A program made the translations under genes and the position numbers. The notes under the pieces are model-generated. The model made no database searches. It was given only the letters and a program-made list of their open reading frames with translations, and was not told the origin of the DNA. This document shows, in pieces, positions 5,422 through 22,244 of a DNA stretch of 64,000 nucleotides; position 1 is the stretch's first letter, and each line of letters begins with the position of its first letter. The DNA is from Candidatus Moraniibacteriota bacterium (GTDB lineage: Bacteria; Patescibacteriota; Minisyncoccia; Moranbacterales; GCA-2747515). The DNA lies in contig CP175956.1 in assembly GCA_046116545.1 (NCBI GenBank), positions 641,734 through 705,733 on the forward strand. Direction: 5' to 3'.

Positions 5422-6216
5422 ATGAAAAAAATCATAGTTGGTATTTTGGCTTTGCTATTAGTCATATATATTGGTGGTTTTTTCTTTTCCTCTTGGGCAC
5501 AAGAATTATTGATTTATCCTAGTCCAAATCGTACCAATGAAAATTGTGAAAGAAAAATTGCAGAAAAAACAGTTGAGCATAATGAAACTACTTTATATCA
5601 TCAGTCTGTAGAGAATGCTGATGAAGTAATAGTTTTTTATCATGGTAATGGAAATATTGTTTGTGATATGGTTTTTGTGGCAGATATTTTTAATGAAAAT
5701 GATATATCATATATTTTCCCAGAGTATACTGGATATAGTGATGATGGTAATAAATCTACACATGAAGGCGTGTTAAAAAACGTACAAGATACAGCTGATT
5801 ATATTGAACAGCAAGATTATGAGCATGTTTATGTGATTGGACAGAGTATTGGGACAGGTGCAGCAGCGTATCATACAACTTTACAAGAAGTTGAGAAACT
5901 CCTTTTGATTTCTCCATTTACTACACTTACAGATGTTATTTATGAAATGGTCCCGTTGTATCCACGGATATTTATTGAAAACTTTTTTGTTGATTTATTT
6001 AATAATAAGTTGAGGTTACAAGATTATAAGGGTGATTTATTAATTATTCATGGTACAAATGATTTAGTTATAGATATTTCTCAAGGATTGGAATTGTTTG
6101 AGTCGACTTCAGCAAGACAAAAGGAATTTCTATCAGCTGAGGGCTTTGGACATGCAAATATTGTTGAGTCAGATGAGATAATAAAAGTCATTAATGATAT
6201 AAGTCAGCAAGAATAA
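5422..6216 (+). CDS. membrane-anchored alpha/beta hydrolase
   Basis: N-terminal TM; HGNGN oxyanion region; GQSIG nucleophile elbow (GxSxG); catalytic His near the C-terminus. Confidence 0.65.
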   Translation: MKKIIVGILALLLVIYIGGFFFSSWAQELLIYPSPNRTNENCERKIAEKTVEHNETTLYHQSVENADEVIVFYHGNGNIVCDMVFVADIFNENDISYIFPEYTGYSDDGNKSTHEGVLKNVQDTADYIEQQDYEHVYVIGQSIGTGAAAYHTTLQEVEKLLLISPFTTLTDVIYEMVPLYPRIFIENFFVDLFNNKLRLQDYKGDLLIIHGTNDLVIDISQGLELFESTSARQKEFLSAEGFGHANIVESDEIIKVINDISQQE

Positions 6217-15054: not shown

Positions 15055-16752
15055 ATGCAAAAAAAATGGAATGTAAAAAAATACATTAATGATTCTATAG
15101 ATGGAATTGATAATGAAATCATAGAACAATTGTTGTTACAAAAAGACATTACATCAAAAGAAGATGCAATGAATTTTTTTACACCAAATTATGATGAACT
15201 TCATGATGCTTTTTTATTTGAGGATATGGATAAGGTTGTTGAGCGTGTAGAAAAGGCAATTAAAAATCAAGAAATAATAGGAATATTTGGTGACCATGAT
15301 GCTGATGGAGTAAGTAGTGCTACTGTACTTGTTGAGGGATTAGAAAAATTAGGTTTGAATGTAGATGTTTATATACCTAATAAAATTACAGAAGGTCACG
15401 GTATAAATAAAAAGGCTATTGATGAGTTTGTTGCCATTGGAGTCACTTTAATGTTCAGTGTTGATTGCGGAACTTCAAATGTTGATGAAGTTGATTATAC
15501 AAATGAGCAGGGGTTAGATGTTATAATAACGGACCATCATCATGCTCCTGACACTCTACCAAATGCTTATGCAATTATAAATCCACAATTACCTAAATGT
15601 AAGTATCCATTTAAAAATTTATCAGGAACAGCAGTCGCATTTAAAGTTGTGGAAGCACTATTTGATAGGATTGCACCAGAGAAATCTGAACAGTTAAAAT
15701 GGTTACTTGATGTCGTATGTGTAGGAACAATAGCTGATTGCATGCCATTAGTTGGTGAAAATAGGACACTTGTTAAATATGGACTTATAGTTTTATCAAA
15801 AACTCAGAGATTGGGTTATCAGGAGATGTGCAATGTGGGTAATATAGCTATAAATAATGGAAGTATTCCATCAGCAACTACAGTAGCCTTTCAAATTGCT
15901 CCTAGGATTAATGCAGCAGGTAGAATGAGTCATGCAAAGTATGCATTTGAGCTTATGCGTGAAACTGATAAGTCACTAGCAATCAAACAAGCTCAAGAAC
16001 TAGAAAAGCAAAATTTACAAAGACGAGAAATAACAGAATTACTAACAGCCGAGGTAGAACAAATAATAGAAAAGGATCATAAGGATAAGTCTTTTATAGT
16101 AATAGCAGATAGAAATTACCCAGTTGGGATAGTGGGGATAATAGCAGGGAGAGTTGCTCAGAAATATGGTAAACCAACAGGTATTTTTACAAAGTATGAC
16201 AATGAAAGTAGAGGGTCTTTTCGAAGTGTAGAAGGTGTACATATATTAGATGTATTAAATGCATGTAGTGAGCATCTGGGTAAGTTTGGAGGACATGAAC
16301 AAGCAGCTGGAGCAACTATCCAAAATGATAATTTTGATAATTTTAGCATTGCAGCAAATGAGTTTATAGATGAAAATATAGATTTGAAGAAAAATAAGCA
16401 ATGCCTAACTGCAAATTGTGAGATAACATTTAAGGATATTAGTAGAAAATTATCGACAGAATTACAGAAATTTGAACCATTTGGAGAAAGTAATGAGGAG
16501 CCTGTTTTCATGTTACAAAATCTTGTTATAGATGACATAAGAACTGTGGGTAGCGACAAAAAACATCTTAAATTAAAGTTAGCACAAGAAGGCTTTGCAC
16601 AATCTTATGATGCAATAGGTTTTGGAATTGGTAATTTAATCAATGAACTGAATAGGGGTGATTTAGTTGACGTTGTGGTTAATATTCAAGAGAATGAATG
16701 GATGGGTAATGTAAGTGTGCAGTTTAATATTGTAGACATTATGAAAAAGTAG
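15055..16752 (+). CDS. recJ: single-stranded-DNA-specific exonuclease RecJ
   Basis: DHH motifs (GDHDADG, DHHH) and DHHA1 region. Confidence 0.85.
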   Translation: MQKKWNVKKYINDSIDGIDNEIIEQLLLQKDITSKEDAMNFFTPNYDELHDAFLFEDMDKVVERVEKAIKNQEIIGIFGDHDADGVSSATVLVEGLEKLGLNVDVYIPNKITEGHGINKKAIDEFVAIGVTLMFSVDCGTSNVDEVDYTNEQGLDVIITDHHHAPDTLPNAYAIINPQLPKCKYPFKNLSGTAVAFKVVEALFDRIAPEKSEQLKWLLDVVCVGTIADCMPLVGENRTLVKYGLIVLSKTQRLGYQEMCNVGNIAINNGSIPSATTVAFQIAPRINAAGRMSHAKYAFELMRETDKSLAIKQAQELEKQNLQRREITELLTAEVEQIIEKDHKDKSFIVIADRNYPVGIVGIIAGRVAQKYGKPTGIFTKYDNESRGSFRSVEGVHILDVLNACSEHLGKFGGHEQAAGATIQNDNFDNFSIAANEFIDENIDLKKNKQCLTANCEITFKDISRKLSTELQKFEPFGESNEEPVFMLQNLVIDDIRTVGSDKKHLKLKLAQEGFAQSYDAIGFGIGNLINELNRGDLVDVVVNIQENEWMGNVSVQFNIVDIMKK

Positions 16753-16867
16753 AGTTTTAATATTACATACTTTTCAAAAAATATTTGAAAAAGTTTATAT
16801 TTGTGGTACGGTTTAGTATAGTTTTTTAACAATAACAAATTTATAAATTACAAATAGGAGGAATTAA

Positions 16868-17668
16868 TTGATGAAAAAGGTGACAATGGTTGTTTTGGCG
16901 TTGGTGGTTGGATTAATTAATTCAACTGTTGTGCAAGCAAATGCAAAGGATCAATATCATTTTTGGGATGTGGGAGTTGAATTATCAAATATTGTATATA
17001 AAGAGCCTGGTCGCATGAAAGAGAGTGGAGATATGATAGGAATAACTGGTTCTTATGCATATCATAATAATGTGATGATTAAATTTGAAGGCGTTTTCAA
17101 ATATGGACAAGTAGATTATGATGGAAAATTACAAAATGGAACACCAATTACGCTAAATAATATTGATGATTATATTACAGAAATTCGGGGACTAAGTGGT
17201 TACGATTTTCAAGTGGCTACGACGACGATTACTCCATATATAGGATTAGGCTATAGGTATTTAATTGATACTATGGGATCAGTTTTTATGCATGGATATG
17301 ATAGAGAATCAAATTATTTGTATAGTCCTATAGGGTTAACAACTCTTACCAATTTACAAAATGGATGGTCCGTTGGAGTAATATTGGAATATGATGTTTT
17401 TTGGAGAGGAACTCAAAAAAGTTATATGAGTAATCTACAACATGGTTATAATGATATAAAGAAAGATCAACATAGTGGTTATGGACTCAGAGGATCCATT
17501 AAAATTCAAAAATCTCATTTTTTAATTGAACCCTTTATACGTTATTGGAATATTGGAGATTCTGATATATCCATGCTGACTTCTTATGGAAGTCCAATAG
17601 GAAAATGGTTCTTTGAGCCTAATAATAACTCTACAGAAATTGGATTGAGAGTTATTTGGAGGTTTTAG
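16868..17668 (+). CDS. secreted beta-rich protein, MipA/OmpV-like outer-membrane beta-barrel candidate
   Basis: Signal peptide; aromatic/Gly-rich alternating pattern; C-terminal ...GLRVIWRF ending in Phe as in OM beta-barrels. Confidence 0.45.
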   Translation: MMKKVTMVVLALVVGLINSTVVQANAKDQYHFWDVGVELSNIVYKEPGRMKESGDMIGITGSYAYHNNVMIKFEGVFKYGQVDYDGKLQNGTPITLNNIDDYITEIRGLSGYDFQVATTTITPYIGLGYRYLIDTMGSVFMHGYDRESNYLYSPIGLTTLTNLQNGWSVGVILEYDVFWRGTQKSYMSNLQHGYNDIKKDQHSGYGLRGSIKIQKSHFLIEPFIRYWNIGDSDISMLTSYGSPIGKWFFEPNNNSTEIGLRVIWRF

Positions 17669-17815
17669 TTAACAGTTATGCACGCAAGCTCTAACTACAT
17701 ATTATGTAGTTAGAGTTTTATATTTCTTGACTAAAATTTAAATTTAAGGTATTATATAATATTATAGTTTTTTGACAACAACATATTTATCAATTAAAAA
17801 CGTGAGGAGAAAAAA

Positions 17816-18952
17816 GTGAATAAAAGTATACACAAGATCGTGTTAACTGGTCCGCCATGTTCTGGAAAAAGTACAGCTATAAGCAGGGTTGTTGAATTTG
17901 TAAATAGTCTTGGTGTTAGGGCTGTTTCTGCTCCAGAAGCTGCTACAGAATTAAAGATAAATGGAATTACTCCAGAAAATTACAAAGATCCTGCCATGTT
18001 TCAAACTTTTCTTATAGAAAAGCTTTTGTTTAATGAGAGTTTTTTTACGAGAGCTTTACGACATAGTAAGGGTGTTATGGAAAATGGAGGTATTGTAGTT
18101 TGTGACAGAGGTCTTCATGATTGTTTGGCATATTCAGATAAAGAGTCAGTAGAAAGAACTTTGTTCGTACATCATGAGCTGAGTCTTGAAAAAGAAATAA
18201 GTTCAAGATATGCGATGGCTATATTTATGGATGTGGCACCTAAGAAATATTATACGAACCAAAATAATAGTGCTCGAGAAGAAACTTACACGGAGGCACT
18301 TTTACTAGGTTCAAAAACTGCTACTGCCTGGGTTGGACATCCTAACTTAATACTTGTTGGTAATAATTATGATGACTTTGATGGCAAGGTAAATGCTGTT
18401 ATCCAAAATGTTGCTCAGCTGGTAGGTGTGCCAGAGCCGTTAGCTATTGAACGCAAGTATCTTGTTCGCGATAGGCAAAGTATTGTGTTGGAAAAATTTC
18501 TTGAGCGTAAACAAGCGGTGTGTGTTAATATAGTACAGCATTATCTTATCGGCGATGGGGAAGAACGTGTGCGTGCTTGGACTCGTGATAGTGTGACAAC
18601 TTATTTTCATACCAAAAAAAGTAACGAGCCATCTGTCCAGAGAATAAAAACTGAAAAAATTATTTCTCGTGCGAAGTATGAGGAGCTTCTTAGAAGTGCT
18701 GATCCAGAGTGTGCTCCAATTGAAAAAGTTCGACATTACTTTATTGATAATAATCAATATTTTAGGTTAGATACTTTTCCACATAACTCAGGAGCACATT
18801 TGCTAGAAGTACAACCAACAACTGAGCAAGAGCATATAACTTTACCAGATTGTCTAAGTTGCTGTGCTATTGAGGTAACGGATGAGGCTATGTATTACAA
18901 CTATAATATTGCTAGAGAACTAGAAAAACAAAGGAGGTTAGTAAATGAATGA
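17816..18952 (+). CDS. P-loop nucleoside/NMN-kinase-like ATPase fused to CYTH (triphosphate tunnel) domain
   Basis: N-terminal GPPCSGKST Walker A (AAA_28/NadR-kinase-like); C-terminal begins AIERKYLVRD, the CYTH EIERKFLV signature, with downstream acidic/basic tunnel residues. Confidence 0.6.
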   Translation: MNKSIHKIVLTGPPCSGKSTAISRVVEFVNSLGVRAVSAPEAATELKINGITPENYKDPAMFQTFLIEKLLFNESFFTRALRHSKGVMENGGIVVCDRGLHDCLAYSDKESVERTLFVHHELSLEKEISSRYAMAIFMDVAPKKYYTNQNNSAREETYTEALLLGSKTATAWVGHPNLILVGNNYDDFDGKVNAVIQNVAQLVGVPEPLAIERKYLVRDRQSIVLEKFLERKQAVCVNIVQHYLIGDGEERVRAWTRDSVTTYFHTKKSNEPSVQRIKTEKIISRAKYEELLRSADPECAPIEKVRHYFIDNNQYFRLDTFPHNSGAHLLEVQPTTEQEHITLPDCLSCCAIEVTDEAMYYNYNIARELEKQRRLVNE

Positions 18953-19427
18953 GAATGTAACTGTGGGCACAAGACATGCTTTAGATTTATTGGATGTCAG
19001 GTTTATAACAGATGATTTTTCTCCAAATAGCATCAAGACAGATAATGCTATTATGTTTGAAACTGTTATGCCATTTTTTGATGCATTGATAGATCAATAT
19101 TTTATCGAATGTGTAGATGAGGAAGCGCAATTGTACAAAGTGACAAATAGAGGTCGCTTTATAATTTCTATGGATGATGCTGATATTGTTGAAGATGTAA
19201 TTTTGACAGATAATCAGAAAAAAACATTGATCATAATGTCATTGATGGATGGAAAAGTATCTTCTGCAGATAATTCGTTCAATCCTCATCAATTTTGTGA
19301 TTTTGAAGATTTAATTACTAAGAAATTTGTCATGACAGACAGGGATTCTGATAACTGGTATCCATTTGTCTTCTGGCTTTCGAAAAAAGGTGAACAGTTT
19401 GCAAAGAAACATTGTATTATTTTGTGA
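18945..19427 (+). CDS. hypothetical protein translationally coupled to the kinase-CYTH gene
   Basis: ATGAATGAG start overlaps upstream stop by 8 nt; 160 aa; followed by strong terminator. Confidence 0.45.
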   Translation: MNENVTVGTRHALDLLDVRFITDDFSPNSIKTDNAIMFETVMPFFDALIDQYFIECVDEEAQLYKVTNRGRFIISMDDADIVEDVILTDNQKKTLIIMSLMDGKVSSADNSFNPHQFCDFEDLITKKFVMTDRDSDNWYPFVFWLSKKGEQFAKKHCIIL

Positions 19428-19435
19428 AATAATAC

Positions 19436-19480
19436 AAAAACCCCGATCACATAACATGTGGTCGGGGTTTTAAATTTTTT
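19436..19480 (+). terminator. rho-independent terminator
   Basis: aaaaaccccgatcacataacatgtggtcggggttttaaatttttt. Confidence 0.85.
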
Positions 19481-19610
19481 GTATGTTAAGTATAGAAAGG
19501 TACAATATTAATGTGCTTGAGTTTTTAAGTAGATAACGAAAAGTTAATATTGTAGATATAAATTTTTAGTGTTAATATATAAGATATAAATAATAAAATA
19601 AATATAAAAT

Positions 19611-20906
19611 ATGAAGTATAAAAAAAATACAATACTAGTACTTAGTGCAATATTTTGTTTTGCACTTGTTCAAAATGTTAAGGCAGCGACTACAACTTTT
19701 ACAGTAGAACAATTAGAAGCTGCAAACAGCATTGAAAATGCAATTTTATTAGAAGATGGTGATGAGTACAGATATGATGGTGTGCTTACAACAAAGCAAA
19801 ATCCAAAAAGTGAAACATTTTTCAAAATTCCTGTAGCATCTGGAGAAAGATTGGGTTTGCATGGTATTTTTGGTAAAGAAAACTATACACGTCCAGGATT
19901 AACCTTTTTTAGAGTAAATGGTGATCAATTTGCCAAAACAATAAACATGGAAAATGAAGAAAATACAAGTGTTTATTATACAGTTGGTAATGATGTGCAG
20001 GAGAGAGCTTTCTCTGATGATATGATTTATATCAATCTGCATTTTGATAATTTTGCAGGACATAGTGAAAAGGGCTATCAATTTACAGTAGGAATAGATA
20101 ATAAGGGTGACGCAAGAACACAGCTAGATGCAGCTGATGTAGTGGAGGAGGCACTTGTTATCAAAGAAGGTGTATATGAGCAGAACTTTTTGACAGAAGC
20201 TGGAGATACTGCAAACGGAGGTACAAAAATGTATCTTGCAGATGATGATACAGATTGTTACGCAATTGACTTTGATGCTGACAAGATGGTTAAATTTAAA
20301 ATTACGCCAGACAGTGATCTCGGTAACGGTGCAGCTGCATTGAGTTTAATCGTGCGAGATAGCGATAATATAGTAAGGGGAAAAAGTACTTCACGTTCAG
20401 GTGGAGCATTTTTTGTTGATGCAGAGGTGAGTGCTGGAGATACTCTTTATTTTTGTATTACTGATAAGACATACTCATCTTTTTTTGGAACGTATAAGAT
20501 GGATATTAGCAGTACACCAATTGAGAAACAAGATGATAAGGATAATAAAGACGCTATAGTGATGGGTGTTACTAATGATGGTATTAATAAGGAATCTAAT
20601 GAGTTTGTTGATAATACTGTTGATTTAGGAGAGAAAGTTACAAATGGAGTCGAAACTGCTAAAAAAACAGTAAAAATTATTGTTATAGGTATAGTAGGTA
20701 TAGGACTTTTGTTTGTAATTAGCATAATTGCAATCATTGTATATATTGTGAAAAAATCAAAAAAAAGAAAACTTGAGGCAACAACTTCTGTGGCAAATAC
20801 AAGCACACAAGATACCTCTATACAACAAAATGCACCTCAATCAACTCAACAATCAATGGCACAACCTTCACAAAATGATGATCAGAATAATAACATCACA
20901 AATTAG
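19611..20906 (+). CDS. surface/secreted protein with signal peptide, PPC-like beta domains, C-terminal TM anchor and Q/S/T-rich tail
   Basis: N-terminal signal peptide, hydrophobic helix near residue 350, low-complexity polar tail. Confidence 0.5.
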   Translation: MKYKKNTILVLSAIFCFALVQNVKAATTTFTVEQLEAANSIENAILLEDGDEYRYDGVLTTKQNPKSETFFKIPVASGERLGLHGIFGKENYTRPGLTFFRVNGDQFAKTINMENEENTSVYYTVGNDVQERAFSDDMIYINLHFDNFAGHSEKGYQFTVGIDNKGDARTQLDAADVVEEALVIKEGVYEQNFLTEAGDTANGGTKMYLADDDTDCYAIDFDADKMVKFKITPDSDLGNGAAALSLIVRDSDNIVRGKSTSRSGGAFFVDAEVSAGDTLYFCITDKTYSSFFGTYKMDISSTPIEKQDDKDNKDAIVMGVTNDGINKESNEFVDNTVDLGEKVTNGVETAKKTVKIIVIGIVGIGLLFVISIIAIIVYIVKKSKKRKLEATTSVANTSTQDTSIQQNAPQSTQQSMAQPSQNDDQNNNITN

Positions 20907-21009
20907 TACTGCTTTAAGAAACCTCATTGTCTTATTGATGATGAGGTTTTATTGTCTTTAATAATAAAAAAGTATAAAATAGAGTTAATAACATAATTTA
21001 TATATAGAT

Positions 21010-21438
21010 ATGGAAAAAATAATAATTTATACAGATGGTGGTTCACGTGGAAATCCTGGTCCGGCAGGTATTGGTATTTGGATTGAATCACTAAATAAAA
21101 AATATGGGGAGACAATTGGAGATGCTACCAATAATGATGCCGAATATCAAGCTCTCATTTTTGCTTTGAAAAAAACTAAAGCATTATTAGGTAAACAAAA
21201 AGCAAAGCAAGTATCTCTTGAGTGCAGACTAGATAGCGAACTAATTGTGAAGCAATTAAATCATGAATATAAGATATCAAAAGAAAACATGCAAGGTTAT
21301 TTCATAGAAGTATGGAATACAATGCTAGATTTCAATGAAGTTACATTTTTACATGTGCCTAGAGAGCAAAATAAAATTGCTGATGCAATGGTAAACCAAG
21401 CGCTTGATGGGGAATTGGGAGAAGGTGGTTTATTTTAA
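21010..21438 (+). CDS. rnhA: ribonuclease HI
   Basis: IYTDGGSRGNPGPAGIG...NNDAEYQALIFAL...D RNase H catalytic motif pattern. Confidence 0.85.
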   Translation: MEKIIIYTDGGSRGNPGPAGIGIWIESLNKKYGETIGDATNNDAEYQALIFALKKTKALLGKQKAKQVSLECRLDSELIVKQLNHEYKISKENMQGYFIEVWNTMLDFNEVTFLHVPREQNKIADAMVNQALDGELGEGGLF

Positions 21439-21491: not shown

Positions 21492-22244
21492 TTAATTAAC
21501 CTGAAAACGTTCAGTCAATATTTTAAATGACTGTACGTTTTGTTGTTTCTTAGGCAATGCATCAAAAGCAATTGACGCAAAGTATGTTGCTTTGAGTTGC
21601 ATTGTATCCCAAGGTAATCTGTCAAAGTCGACAGTATCACCAATTTTTTGGTAATAAAATTCTGTTAAATCGAATTTTTTTACAACACTTGCTACGGCAG
21701 GGTTTCCACTGTGTAAGCATTTCTCAATAAGACATCTGTTGTTTCGAAGGACAGCTCCAGACAAATAATCTTCTGCAAGAACTTGCGCAAAAATCCTGCG
21801 CACCTTTTCAGACGGTTCAGCCTTGTGGGCCAAGTCATATTCATCAAAAGTATATCCGCAAAACGATACTCTTGGAACTGTTCGCATAAAATATAGATTA
21901 TGATTATATGCCGTTATGTCATCGATGACACAACAGAGAATATCATGCAAAAACCAAAAAGGACGCTCACGAAAGATCATTCTGATAATCTGATAATCCG
22001 AAGAAACTTCCAGTGCTCCATGTTCACCGCATACTTGATCGGTGAATGAATCATAAGGCACATGATTATACTCAAGTGCTTCCTGGATAGTAAACCATAC
22101 ACAACCCCATTCTTTTTTGCAAGATCTGGGAATATGTACTTTATGGCATTTGATTTGGAGATACGTACCACCTCTATTACTGTCATTCAATCGTTGAATT
22201 TCTGTTGTAGGGCTTTGTAGAACCTCTTTTAATGTCATGGACAT
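21492..22244 (-). CDS. hypothetical protein encoded by locally GC-enriched DNA
   Basis: 250 aa; visibly higher GC than its flanks; no family recognised. Confidence 0.45.
   Translation of the reverse strand: MSMTLKEVLQSPTTEIQRLNDSNRGGTYLQIKCHKVHIPRSCKKEWGCVWFTIQEALEYNHVPYDSFTDQVCGEHGALEVSSDYQIIRMIFRERPFWFLHDILCCVIDDITAYNHNLYFMRTVPRVSFCGYTFDEYDLAHKAEPSEKVRRIFAQVLAEDYLSGAVLRNNRCLIEKCLHSGNPAVASVVKKFDLTEFYYQKIGDTVDFDRLPWDTMQLKATYFASIAFDALPKKQQNVQSFKILTERFQVN

Follow-up and report, generated by a model that had tools for sequence, protein, structure and literature searches.

The window analyzed here is a 64,000-nucleotide stretch of the genome of a Candidatus Moraniibacteriota bacterium (assembly GCA_046116545.1, contig CP175956.1, positions 641,734 to 705,733 of the forward strand), and coordinates below are those of the window unless a related contig is named. 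Within it, two overlapping genes, which we refer to as gene A and gene B, form a real, isolated bicistronic operon. Gene A encodes a P-loop kinase-like domain of the AAA_28 family fused to a CYTH domain, that is, a tunnel of the triphosphate tunnel metalloenzyme (TTM) type, whose acidic patch is remodeled. We favor, with a probability of about 0.5, a reading in which this tunnel would serve as a regulatory domain that binds tri- or polyphosphate and gates the kinase, with the gene B protein as an accessory modulator. The AAA_28-CYTH architecture is already known and widespread; what is new is the clade-conserved remodeling of the acidic patch and the lineage-restricted cassette of small proteins to which gene B belongs.

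A kinase-like domain fused to a remodeled tunnel

Gene A and its parts are laid out as follows.

17816-18952, + strand: gene A, 378 amino acids (aa), GTG start; AAA_28 P-loop kinase-like domain followed by CYTH (TTD14-like architecture)
17828-18424, + strand: N-terminal P-loop kinase-like domain, aa 5-203, assigned from AAA_28, Foldseek matches to thymidylate kinases, and invariant residues
17849-17875, + strand: Walker A motif GPPCSGKST, aa 12-20, read from the sequence; family-invariant
18089-18112, + strand: Walker B / DR motif IVVCDRGL, aa 92-99; C96-D97-R98-G99 invariant in 44 relatives
18437-18931, + strand: C-terminal CYTH / triphosphate-tunnel domain, aa 208-372, assigned from profile, BLASTP, PHROGs, and Foldseek matches
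18443-18457, + strand: degenerate ExExK motif, A210-I-E212-R-K214; first Glu replaced by A/T/I/N in the whole clade (canonical EIERK)
18806-18814, + strand: C-terminal E-x-E motif reduced to E331-V-Q333; E331 is the invariant site-1 Glu, and Q333 replaces the site-2 Glu

The C-terminal domain is a true CYTH/TTM domain, although this is not evident from the window protein alone. Direct searches of Pfam and NCBIfam with the gene A protein gave no CYTH (PF01928) match, and a direct sequence search of the PDB with either the gene A or the gene B protein gave nothing useful. PF01928 is, however, matched by 10 of 44 aligned relatives (best E = 3.8e-6), and a profile of the family matches NeuTTM, a triphosphatase of Nitrosomonas (2fbl and 3typ; E = 7e-15), over the whole C-terminal domain (profile positions 207-365). 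Pairwise BLASTP of the gene A protein against NeuTTM gave 29% identity (E = 1e-5), and aa 210-372 match the phage family phrog_6660 (E = 1.3e-11). The AlphaFold2 (AF2) model, with a predicted local distance difference test (pLDDT) score of 92.6 and a predicted template modeling (pTM) score of 0.89, contains both elements of the TTM fold (an eight-stranded beta-tunnel and the plug helix that closes it), namely the tunnel strands (aa 209-332) and a C-terminal helix (aa 362-377). Foldseek searches with the C-terminal half of the model placed NeuTTM first and also returned SaTTM, PH1819, AtTTM3, and class IV cyclases, and the crystal structure of the AtTTM1 kinase and TTM domains (7z67) was matched across both halves (E = 5e-7). 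Because the family profile, the PF01928 matches of relatives, phrog_6660, the BLASTP alignment to NeuTTM, and the fold all agree, the CYTH assignment is secure, and the model suggests that the gene A product is an integrated two-domain unit.

The N-terminal domain is P-loop kinase-like. PF13521 (AAA_28) matches aa 7-177 with an E value of 7.4e-15 (56 bits against a cutoff of 27), alongside weaker Pfam matches to the thymidylate-kinase and NTPase families, and AAA_28 is matched by all 44 of the aligned relatives. When the N-terminal half of the model was searched with Foldseek, the top matches were thymidylate kinases (E ~1e-5), at an identity of only 12-17%. The family-invariant residues (G12, P14, G17, K18, E41, C96, D97, R98, G99, Y132, R154, W172, and G174) are all kept, and the motifs of the domain, namely Walker A, CDRG, and the lid-region R154, are thus intact; IVVCDRGL resembles the DR(Y/H) motif found in thymidylate kinases and nucleoside kinases. 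Phosphotransfer is a prediction for this domain. An earlier interpretation of this DNA made without database searches (the sequence-only reading) had proposed both a small P-loop kinase-like domain with the Walker A motif GPPCSGKST and a C-terminal CYTH domain, and both are borne out. Its proposed check with domain profiles succeeded for PF13521 in the window protein itself and for PF01928 only in relatives, and the string AIERKYLVRD, which it took for the CYTH signature, is present but lacks the first Glu of an intact ExExK motif.

To describe the tunnel, positions were read off the family alignment in NeuTTM numbering, and metal sites were mapped as in AtTTM3 and ygiF (PMC4641920, Martinez et al.). 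According to that work, site 1 is completed by the first Glu of the C-terminal ExE motif (AtTTM3 E169, ygiF E160), which is invariant in characterized TTMs, and positions the triphosphate, whereas site 2 is formed by both ExExK glutamates and the second ExE Glu and activates the attacking water; mutation of the ExExK or ExE glutamates abolishes or strongly reduces activity in AtTTM3, ygiF, Cet1-type enzymes, and CthTTM. In NeuTTM, Tyr28 and Lys52 have been proposed to act as a catalytic pair (PMC3440374). Aligned with NeuTTM (equivalent residues in parentheses), the window protein has A210 (E4), E212 (E6), and K214 (K8) in the first strand, followed by Y243 (Y28), R251 (R39), R253 (R41), K268 (K52), K278 (E61), E280 (E63), K304 (K85), R306 (R87), R317 (E99), D319 (D101), E331 (E114), and Q333 (E116). 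Thus, of the eight acidic residues that line the tunnel, four glutamates have given way to another residue (A or T at position 210, K at 278, R at 317, and Q at 333), four residues are kept (E212, E280, D319, and E331), and two of the three ligands of catalytic metal site 2 are gone (A210 and Q333). The basic tunnel residues K214, R251, R253, K268, K304, and R306 are all kept and are invariant or nearly so, and the Tyr-Lys pair Y243/K268 and the site-1 Glu E331 are also retained.

These replacements are shared by a clade. The window protein and the other members of its clade (P0002-P0010 and P0014; eleven members in all, down to 37% identity) have the pattern A/T/I/N-E-K...K-E...R-D...E-Q. For comparison, a scan of species-representative genomes (one genome per species) yielded at least 550 relatives confirmed by tblastn, of which the best 80 (L008-L087) were examined in detail; 63 of these 80, other lineages of the candidate phyla radiation (CPR) included, and nearly all other relatives have the canonical pattern E-E-K...E-E...E-D...E-E. 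Because K278, R317, and Q333 are conserved within the window clade, the altered tunnel is more likely a new functional state than a product of decay.

The same survey shows how common the fusion is. Both domains are covered (query residues ~1-370) in every one of the best 80 relatives, which belong to Clostridia, Bacilli, Saccharibacteria, Paceibacterota, Lloydbacteria, Prevotellaceae, Bacteroidales, and Chloroflexota, and ~40% of them carry an extra N-terminal XRE helix-turn-helix (HTH). In the protein database, 77 homologue clusters have the same two-domain layout, many of them from Saccharibacteria, and coverage of the bacterial relatives is 95-100%. The Joint Genome Institute (JGI) annotation already calls these clusters "CYTH domain-containing protein/predicted ATPase" and names a near-identical copy of the gene A protein "CYTH domain-containing protein/thymidylate kinase." Contrary to the expectation of the sequence-only reading, such a fusion is thus not unusual in bacteria.

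Clustering of neighboring open reading frames (ORFs) in the 80 canonical loci, in search of a conserved partner, revealed nothing general. A small ORF follows closely in only 9 of the 76 canonical loci that have downstream sequence, and those ORFs are unrelated to gene B; a gene B-type partner is not a family-wide feature. Three neighbors recur at low frequency. An S-component of an energy-coupling factor (ECF) transporter adjoins the AAA_28-CYTH gene in 8 of the 80 loci (directly upstream on the same strand in 6 and directly downstream in 2), a separate XRE-HTH and CYTH protein (PF01928, E = 1e-13) neighbors it in 5 of the 80, and 4 loci have in common a protein, encoded downstream and coupled to the gene, that contains the motif EAEWH(F/Y)(W/H)xSHE and has no Pfam match. 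It is possible that these neighbors hint at a vitamin- or nucleoside-type substrate.

The operon and its small-protein cassette

The operon has the following further features.

17686-17718, + strand: intrinsic terminator of the upstream gene, 15-bp stem and T-run; 5' boundary of the operon
17727-17755, + strand: promoter TTGACT-17-TATTAT, 10 of 12 consensus matches
17804-17809, + strand: Shine-Dalgarno sequence of gene A (GAGGAG), 6 nt 5' of the GTG and read from the sequence
18932-18937, + strand: Shine-Dalgarno sequence AGGAGG of gene B, read from the sequence; within the 3' end of gene A
18945-18952, + strand: gene A/gene B overlap ATGAATGA, 8 nt; gene B ATG at 18945, gene A TGA at 18950-18952
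18945-19427, + strand: gene B, 160 aa, ATG start at 18945; acidic, lineage-restricted protein
19197-19424, + strand: C-terminal domain of gene B, aa 85-160; possibly winged-helix and also present in the small proteins encoded after gene A in relatives
19437-19471 (also delimited as 19437-19481), + strand: intrinsic terminator of the operon, 16-bp stem with 7 GC pairs and a T-rich tail

The sequence-only reading had described two ORFs joined by a coupled stop and start, with a standalone promoter region before the first and a strong terminator after the second, and each of these elements was confirmed, the coupling being the 8-nt overlap ATGAATGA. In this AT-rich region, promoter-like matches as such show no excess (23 observed against 24.4 expected from shuffles). 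The position and sequence of the gene A promoter are kept upstream of the orthologue in six other contigs, and the TTGACT -35 element, the -10 element, and the downstream leader (TATATTAT..AGTTTTTTAACAA) are kept in L001, L004, L006, L007, and L090. Synonymous sites of the coding region are saturated, yet the promoter and leader are still conserved. Because the operon has its own conserved promoter and is flanked by terminators, we conclude that it is a real and isolated unit. That both genes are themselves real is indicated by the 77 homologue clusters of gene A and by the dN/dS of gene B against its orthologues (0.15-0.17), which reflects purifying selection. An Rfam scan of 16700-21100 gave sub-threshold matches only, one of which is the terminator hairpin itself, and since the leader is only ~54 nt long, there is no room for a riboswitch. 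In L006 and L007, an inverted repeat, GATAAT-N4-ATTATC, lies over the -10 element of the gene A promoter, and a palindrome, TATAATATTATA, occupies the equivalent window region (17750-17766); these could be an operator or a chance product of AT-rich sequence.

Gene B has few relatives. In all, exhaustive searches (5.8e9 clusters, 1.84e9 representatives) returned only P0079, P0080, and P0081 as homologues, with HMMER and the gene B family contributing only one further relative to these, together with one spurious leucine-rich repeat match. Gene B always lies directly after gene A and is translationally coupled to it. The protein has a net charge of -12 and a pI of 4.5. Its C-terminal part (aa 85-160) is linked by BLAST to proteins of 62-107 aa encoded in L004 and L007, and a profile made from the alignment of this small-protein domain (alignment A3) recovers 11 proteins, none of them from outside this lineage. 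The N-terminal half of gene B has sub-threshold matches to DUF4364 (E = 0.009), HTH_45 (0.11), and Sso10a (0.07), and the A3 profile searched against the PDB gave weak matches to eS10 (0.022), AspA (0.056), and AdcR (0.063), as well as to HxlR and TubR (overall E 0.02-1). We also considered an internal duplication in gene B and rejected it, since alignment of the N-terminal half with the small-protein domain by hhalign gave a probability of 2%.

The small proteins form a cassette with a fixed address. In every case they are encoded between the gene A orthologue and RNase H, in contigs with Moraniibacteria synteny, for which the gene order is ADP-forming acetyl-CoA synthetase, response regulator, RecJ, gene A, small genes, RNase H, an 83-aa gene, a DsbA-like protein, and aspartyl-tRNA synthetase. 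The number of small genes varies from 0 to 3 between loci; the window has one (gene B), and the related contigs have the following.

L001, L003: 93-94 aa and 157-159 aa
L004, L090, L091: 97 aa and 106-107 aa
L007: 89, 62, and 86 aa
L005, L089: none
L006: none, but a 13-codon remnant survives

The remnant in L006 (6160-6200; MNKFEITQGHLSL*) derives from the 93-aa gene and overlaps the stop of the gene A orthologue, indicating recent decay of the cassette in that lineage. The window may carry a related trace. The junction at 18930-18952 resembles both the 3' end of gene A and the 3' end of the 93-aa gene of L001 (5700-5722 and 5985-6010), and these similarities suggest that the 8-nt overlap was probably left behind when the 93-aa gene was deleted between AAGGAGG-like (Shine-Dalgarno-like) repeats. 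Such a deletion would explain why the window has an 8-nt overlap where relatives have the 4-nt ATGA.

Several other genes and sequences around the operon differ between the window and the related contigs. Upstream, RecJ (15055-16752) is closest to that of L001 (72% identity), whereas the gene A protein is 50% identical to its L001 counterpart (42% in the N-terminal domain) and 65% identical to that of L004; the two phylogenies thus disagree, which could reflect either a fast-evolving kinase domain in L001 or recombination of the gene. Between RecJ and gene A, a plus-strand gene at 16868-17668 encodes a 266-aa protein with a signal peptide, an above-threshold Pfam match to OMP_b-brl (E = 4e-7; 30.8 bits against 28.7), and a C terminus (...VIWRF) like an outer-membrane beta-signal. 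Such a protein is unexpected here, since a CPR genome of this kind (Moraniibacteriota) is presumed to be monoderm. L004-L006 lack the gene at the corresponding syntenic position, and L001 and L007 have Big_13 and histidine-kinase genes in its place. In L004, the interval between RecJ and the gene A orthologue (~5690-5950) contains long GC-rich inverted repeats (~45 nt, CGTCATTCCCGCGAAGCCTGCCTGTCCGGTAGGCAGGGCGGGAATC and its reverse complement), a pair that resembles a miniature inverted-repeat element in an AT-rich genome. Downstream, between gene B and RNase H, a plus-strand gene at 19611-20906 encodes a 431-aa protein that combines a signal peptide with a C-terminal membrane anchor and a tail rich in Q and N. 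The gene has its own terminator (20918-20950) and no counterpart in any related contig, and its product has no informative Pfam match. Beyond RNase H, a 250-aa Cys/His-rich ORF on the minus strand (21492-22244) precedes an 80-aa gene and has no Pfam match, and L006 has an unannotated 230-aa minus-strand gene at this position.

Possible functions of the tunnel and of gene B

In the reading that we favor, the tunnel would no longer be an efficient two-metal triphosphatase and would have little or no hydrolase activity. It would instead bind triphosphate or a longer, more negatively charged anion of the phospho-anhydride or polyphosphate type, the latter suggested because the E-to-K and E-to-R changes add positive charge, and occupancy of the tunnel would control the fused P-loop kinase domain, as proposed for Arabidopsis TTM1. 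Ligand sensing and kinase gating are thus put forward by analogy with AtTTM1; that site-2 ligands have been lost and that the altered residues are conserved is, by contrast, directly observed. The gene B protein would be an accessory subunit drawn from a fast-turnover cassette of small, possibly winged-helix-like proteins, and a role as a modulator or adaptor bound to the gene A product is considered more likely for it than DNA binding, because it is acidic and because the small proteins are dispensable in some relatives.

A number of points weigh against this reading. Y243 and K268, the dyad proposed for NeuTTM, are kept along with E212, E280, D319, and E331, so residual or altered hydrolase activity is possible. 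The placement of K278 and R317 in the acidic patch comes from sequence alignment and strand periodicity. The same degenerate tunnel occurs in L005, L006, and L089 with no small gene beside it, indicating that gene A does not depend on the partner for its function. The matches by which gene B and the small proteins are possibly winged-helix are all sub-significant, and the AF2 model of gene B (pLDDT 33) is unusable. Finally, a literature search for AAA_28 or NadR together with CYTH found no study of bacterial members.

The retained residues are the basis of the main alternative, in which the CYTH domain has remained an active phosphohydrolase, such as a NeuTTM-like tripolyphosphatase or NTPase, that works through the site-1 metal and the Tyr-Lys pair, its substitutions having retuned it to a longer or more charged substrate and the gene A product being a bifunctional kinase/phosphatase. 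Invariance of Y243, K268 (NeuTTM Y28 and K52, for which the dyad was proposed; PMC3440374), the four remaining acidic residues, and all basic residues fits this possibility, and the complete active site of the canonical relatives implies that the ancestral function of the family was enzymatic. We nonetheless hold it only tentatively, because Lys and Arg at two acidic positions are incompatible with binding of metal 2, because the glutamate mutations described above strongly reduce the activity of AtTTM3, ygiF, Cet1-type enzymes, and CthTTM (PMC4641920), and because the tunnel of AtTTM1, which shows similar losses, lacks catalytic competence (PMC9582702). A quite different use of the rebuilt tunnel, modeled on the yeast polyphosphate polymerase Vtc4p, appears very improbable. 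Vtc4p retains site 1 but not site 2, which basic residues replace, and uses a catalytic lysine, K458 (PMC4641920); by extension, a tunnel that kept site 1, lost site 2, and gained new Lys and Arg residues might hold or extend polyphosphate, with the P-loop kinase feeding or using the chain and the small proteins acting as adaptors. The absence of the plug-helix Lys from the window protein weighs against this, although, if true, it would constitute an unrecognized bacterial route to make or use polyphosphate or another long phospho-anhydride in organisms of minimal metabolism.

Two further alternatives concern the partner as much as the tunnel. Gene B and the small proteins might be winged-helix DNA-binding regulators, an in trans counterpart of the fused XRE HTH, making the pair a NadR-like ligand-controlled switch that autoregulates the operon. 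Such an HTH is fused in ~32 of the 80 genome homologues and in many metagenomic ones, the weak matches of both gene B halves and of the small-protein profile are all to winged-helix families, and GATAAT-N4-ATTATC overlies the promoter -10 element in L006 and L007. We consider this unlikely, however: every winged-helix match falls below significance (E 0.009-1), the charge and pI of gene B are atypical of DNA binders, as are several of the small proteins, which are acidic or neutral, the promoter element is kept in L006 although its small gene has decayed, and the repeat is AT-rich, overlaps the -10 box, and could be chance. The sequence-only reading had itself suggested a nucleotide-signal synthase or hydrolase with an effector partner, and in its extended form this would be a CYTH cyclase-like second-messenger enzyme in a defense or conflict module. 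The CYTH proteins include class IV adenylate cyclases (PMC4641920, PMC3440374), phages carry stand-alone CYTH proteins (phrog_6660), and the small-protein cassette turns over fast. Against these stand a search of PADLOC-DB that matched neither protein (E <= 1), a location in conserved housekeeping synteny rather than in a variable island, the lack of a partner common to the 80 canonical loci, and the lack of a recognizable effector domain in gene B; in addition, cyclase chemistry needs metal site 2 (PMC4641920), which is dismantled here. The suggestion thus found no support, and we think it highly unlikely. The gene-neighborhood analysis proposed along with it gave a mixed answer, as the pair does co-occur in a few close relatives but is missing at some orthologous loci and showed no association with defense.

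Gene B is of narrow, lineage-specific interest, and the wider interest lies in gene A. The AAA_28-CYTH fusion is common in gut Firmicutes, Saccharibacteria, other CPR, and invertebrates (TTD14), and the canonical and degenerate members offer a natural pair for working out the function of the family.

Comparison with known systems

The AAA_28 family of Pfam includes the kinase domain of NadR, a protein composed of an HTH, an NMN adenylyltransferase, and a ribosylnicotinamide kinase. Many gene A relatives share with NadR an N-terminal HTH and an HTH-enzyme-enzyme layout; gene A, however, has no NMN adenylyltransferase domain, the window protein has no HTH, and there is no NadR structure among the top fold or sequence matches of gene A. 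Vtc4p resembles gene A in having basic residues in place of the acidic patch, similar to the E-to-K and E-to-R changes. It differs in its plug-helix lysine, since the window protein has no Lys at the K458 position (MYYNYNIA, compared with RYKNKALA in NeuTTM). Gene A also has no detectable specific sequence relationship to Vtc4p and lacks SPX and membrane domains.

NeuTTM (NE1496) and CthTTM represent the canonical tunnel. NeuTTM is the closest solved structure to the C-terminal domain of gene A; the plug-helix motif EVTDD..Y.N..A, the Tyr-Lys pair, and the basic residues are common to both. Unlike gene A, these bacterial tripolyphosphatases are stand-alone and have a complete acidic set (E4, E6, E61, E63, E99, D101, E114, and E116 in NeuTTM), the corresponding residues of the window protein being A, E, K, E, R, D, E, and Q.

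The closest parallel to the proposed mechanism comes from plants. In AtTTM1, ExExK has become QxQ. Although this tunnel has no catalytic competence, basic residues in its lining still bind an anion, and the tunnel packs against the P-loop kinase, which it probably regulates (PMC9582702, Pesquera et al.). Like gene A, Arabidopsis TTM1 and TTM2 consist of a P-loop kinase followed by a TTM tunnel that has lost ExExK glutamates and kept its basic lining. The plant kinase is of the uridine/cytidine-kinase type, however, whereas that of gene A is AAA_28 (thymidylate-kinase-like), with no PRK/UCK Pfam match; the kinase type of plant TTM1/2, which the sequence-only reading had invoked, therefore does not apply, and the two are independent fusions. 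Gene A and 7z67 (AtTTM1) share only 12% identity, superpose poorly, with a global root mean square deviation of 21 Å, and have lost different subsets of acidic residues. Gene A also lacks the plant-type C-terminal membrane anchor: its terminal helix (...NIARELEKQRRLVNE) is charged and includes no hydrophobic segment.

By architecture, the nearest known system is TTD14 of Drosophila and its invertebrate orthologues, the only family member with any experimental work. Homology to gene A is full-length (P0073, Lycorma TTD14; E = 9e-24, 28% identity, 96% coverage), with an AAA_28-like P-loop domain followed by CYTH and with acidic tunnel residues lost independently. TTD14 (TRPL translocation defect 14) requires its P-loop for function and binds GTP, phosphatidic acid, and phosphatidylinositol 3-phosphate (PMC4624897). 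It differs from gene A in being eukaryotic, in its long insertions and C-terminal tail, in the set of residues lost (RxKxK in the first strand), and in having no coupled partner gene, and its role in membrane trafficking of an ion channel and its binding of these two lipids have no bacterial counterpart. At least two independent lineages, Moraniibacteria and insects, have thus replaced the acidic patch of the tunnel while keeping its phosphate-binding lining, in parallel with plant TTM1/2, which points to a recurring path from triphosphatase to a phosphate-ligand sensor coupled to a P-loop kinase.

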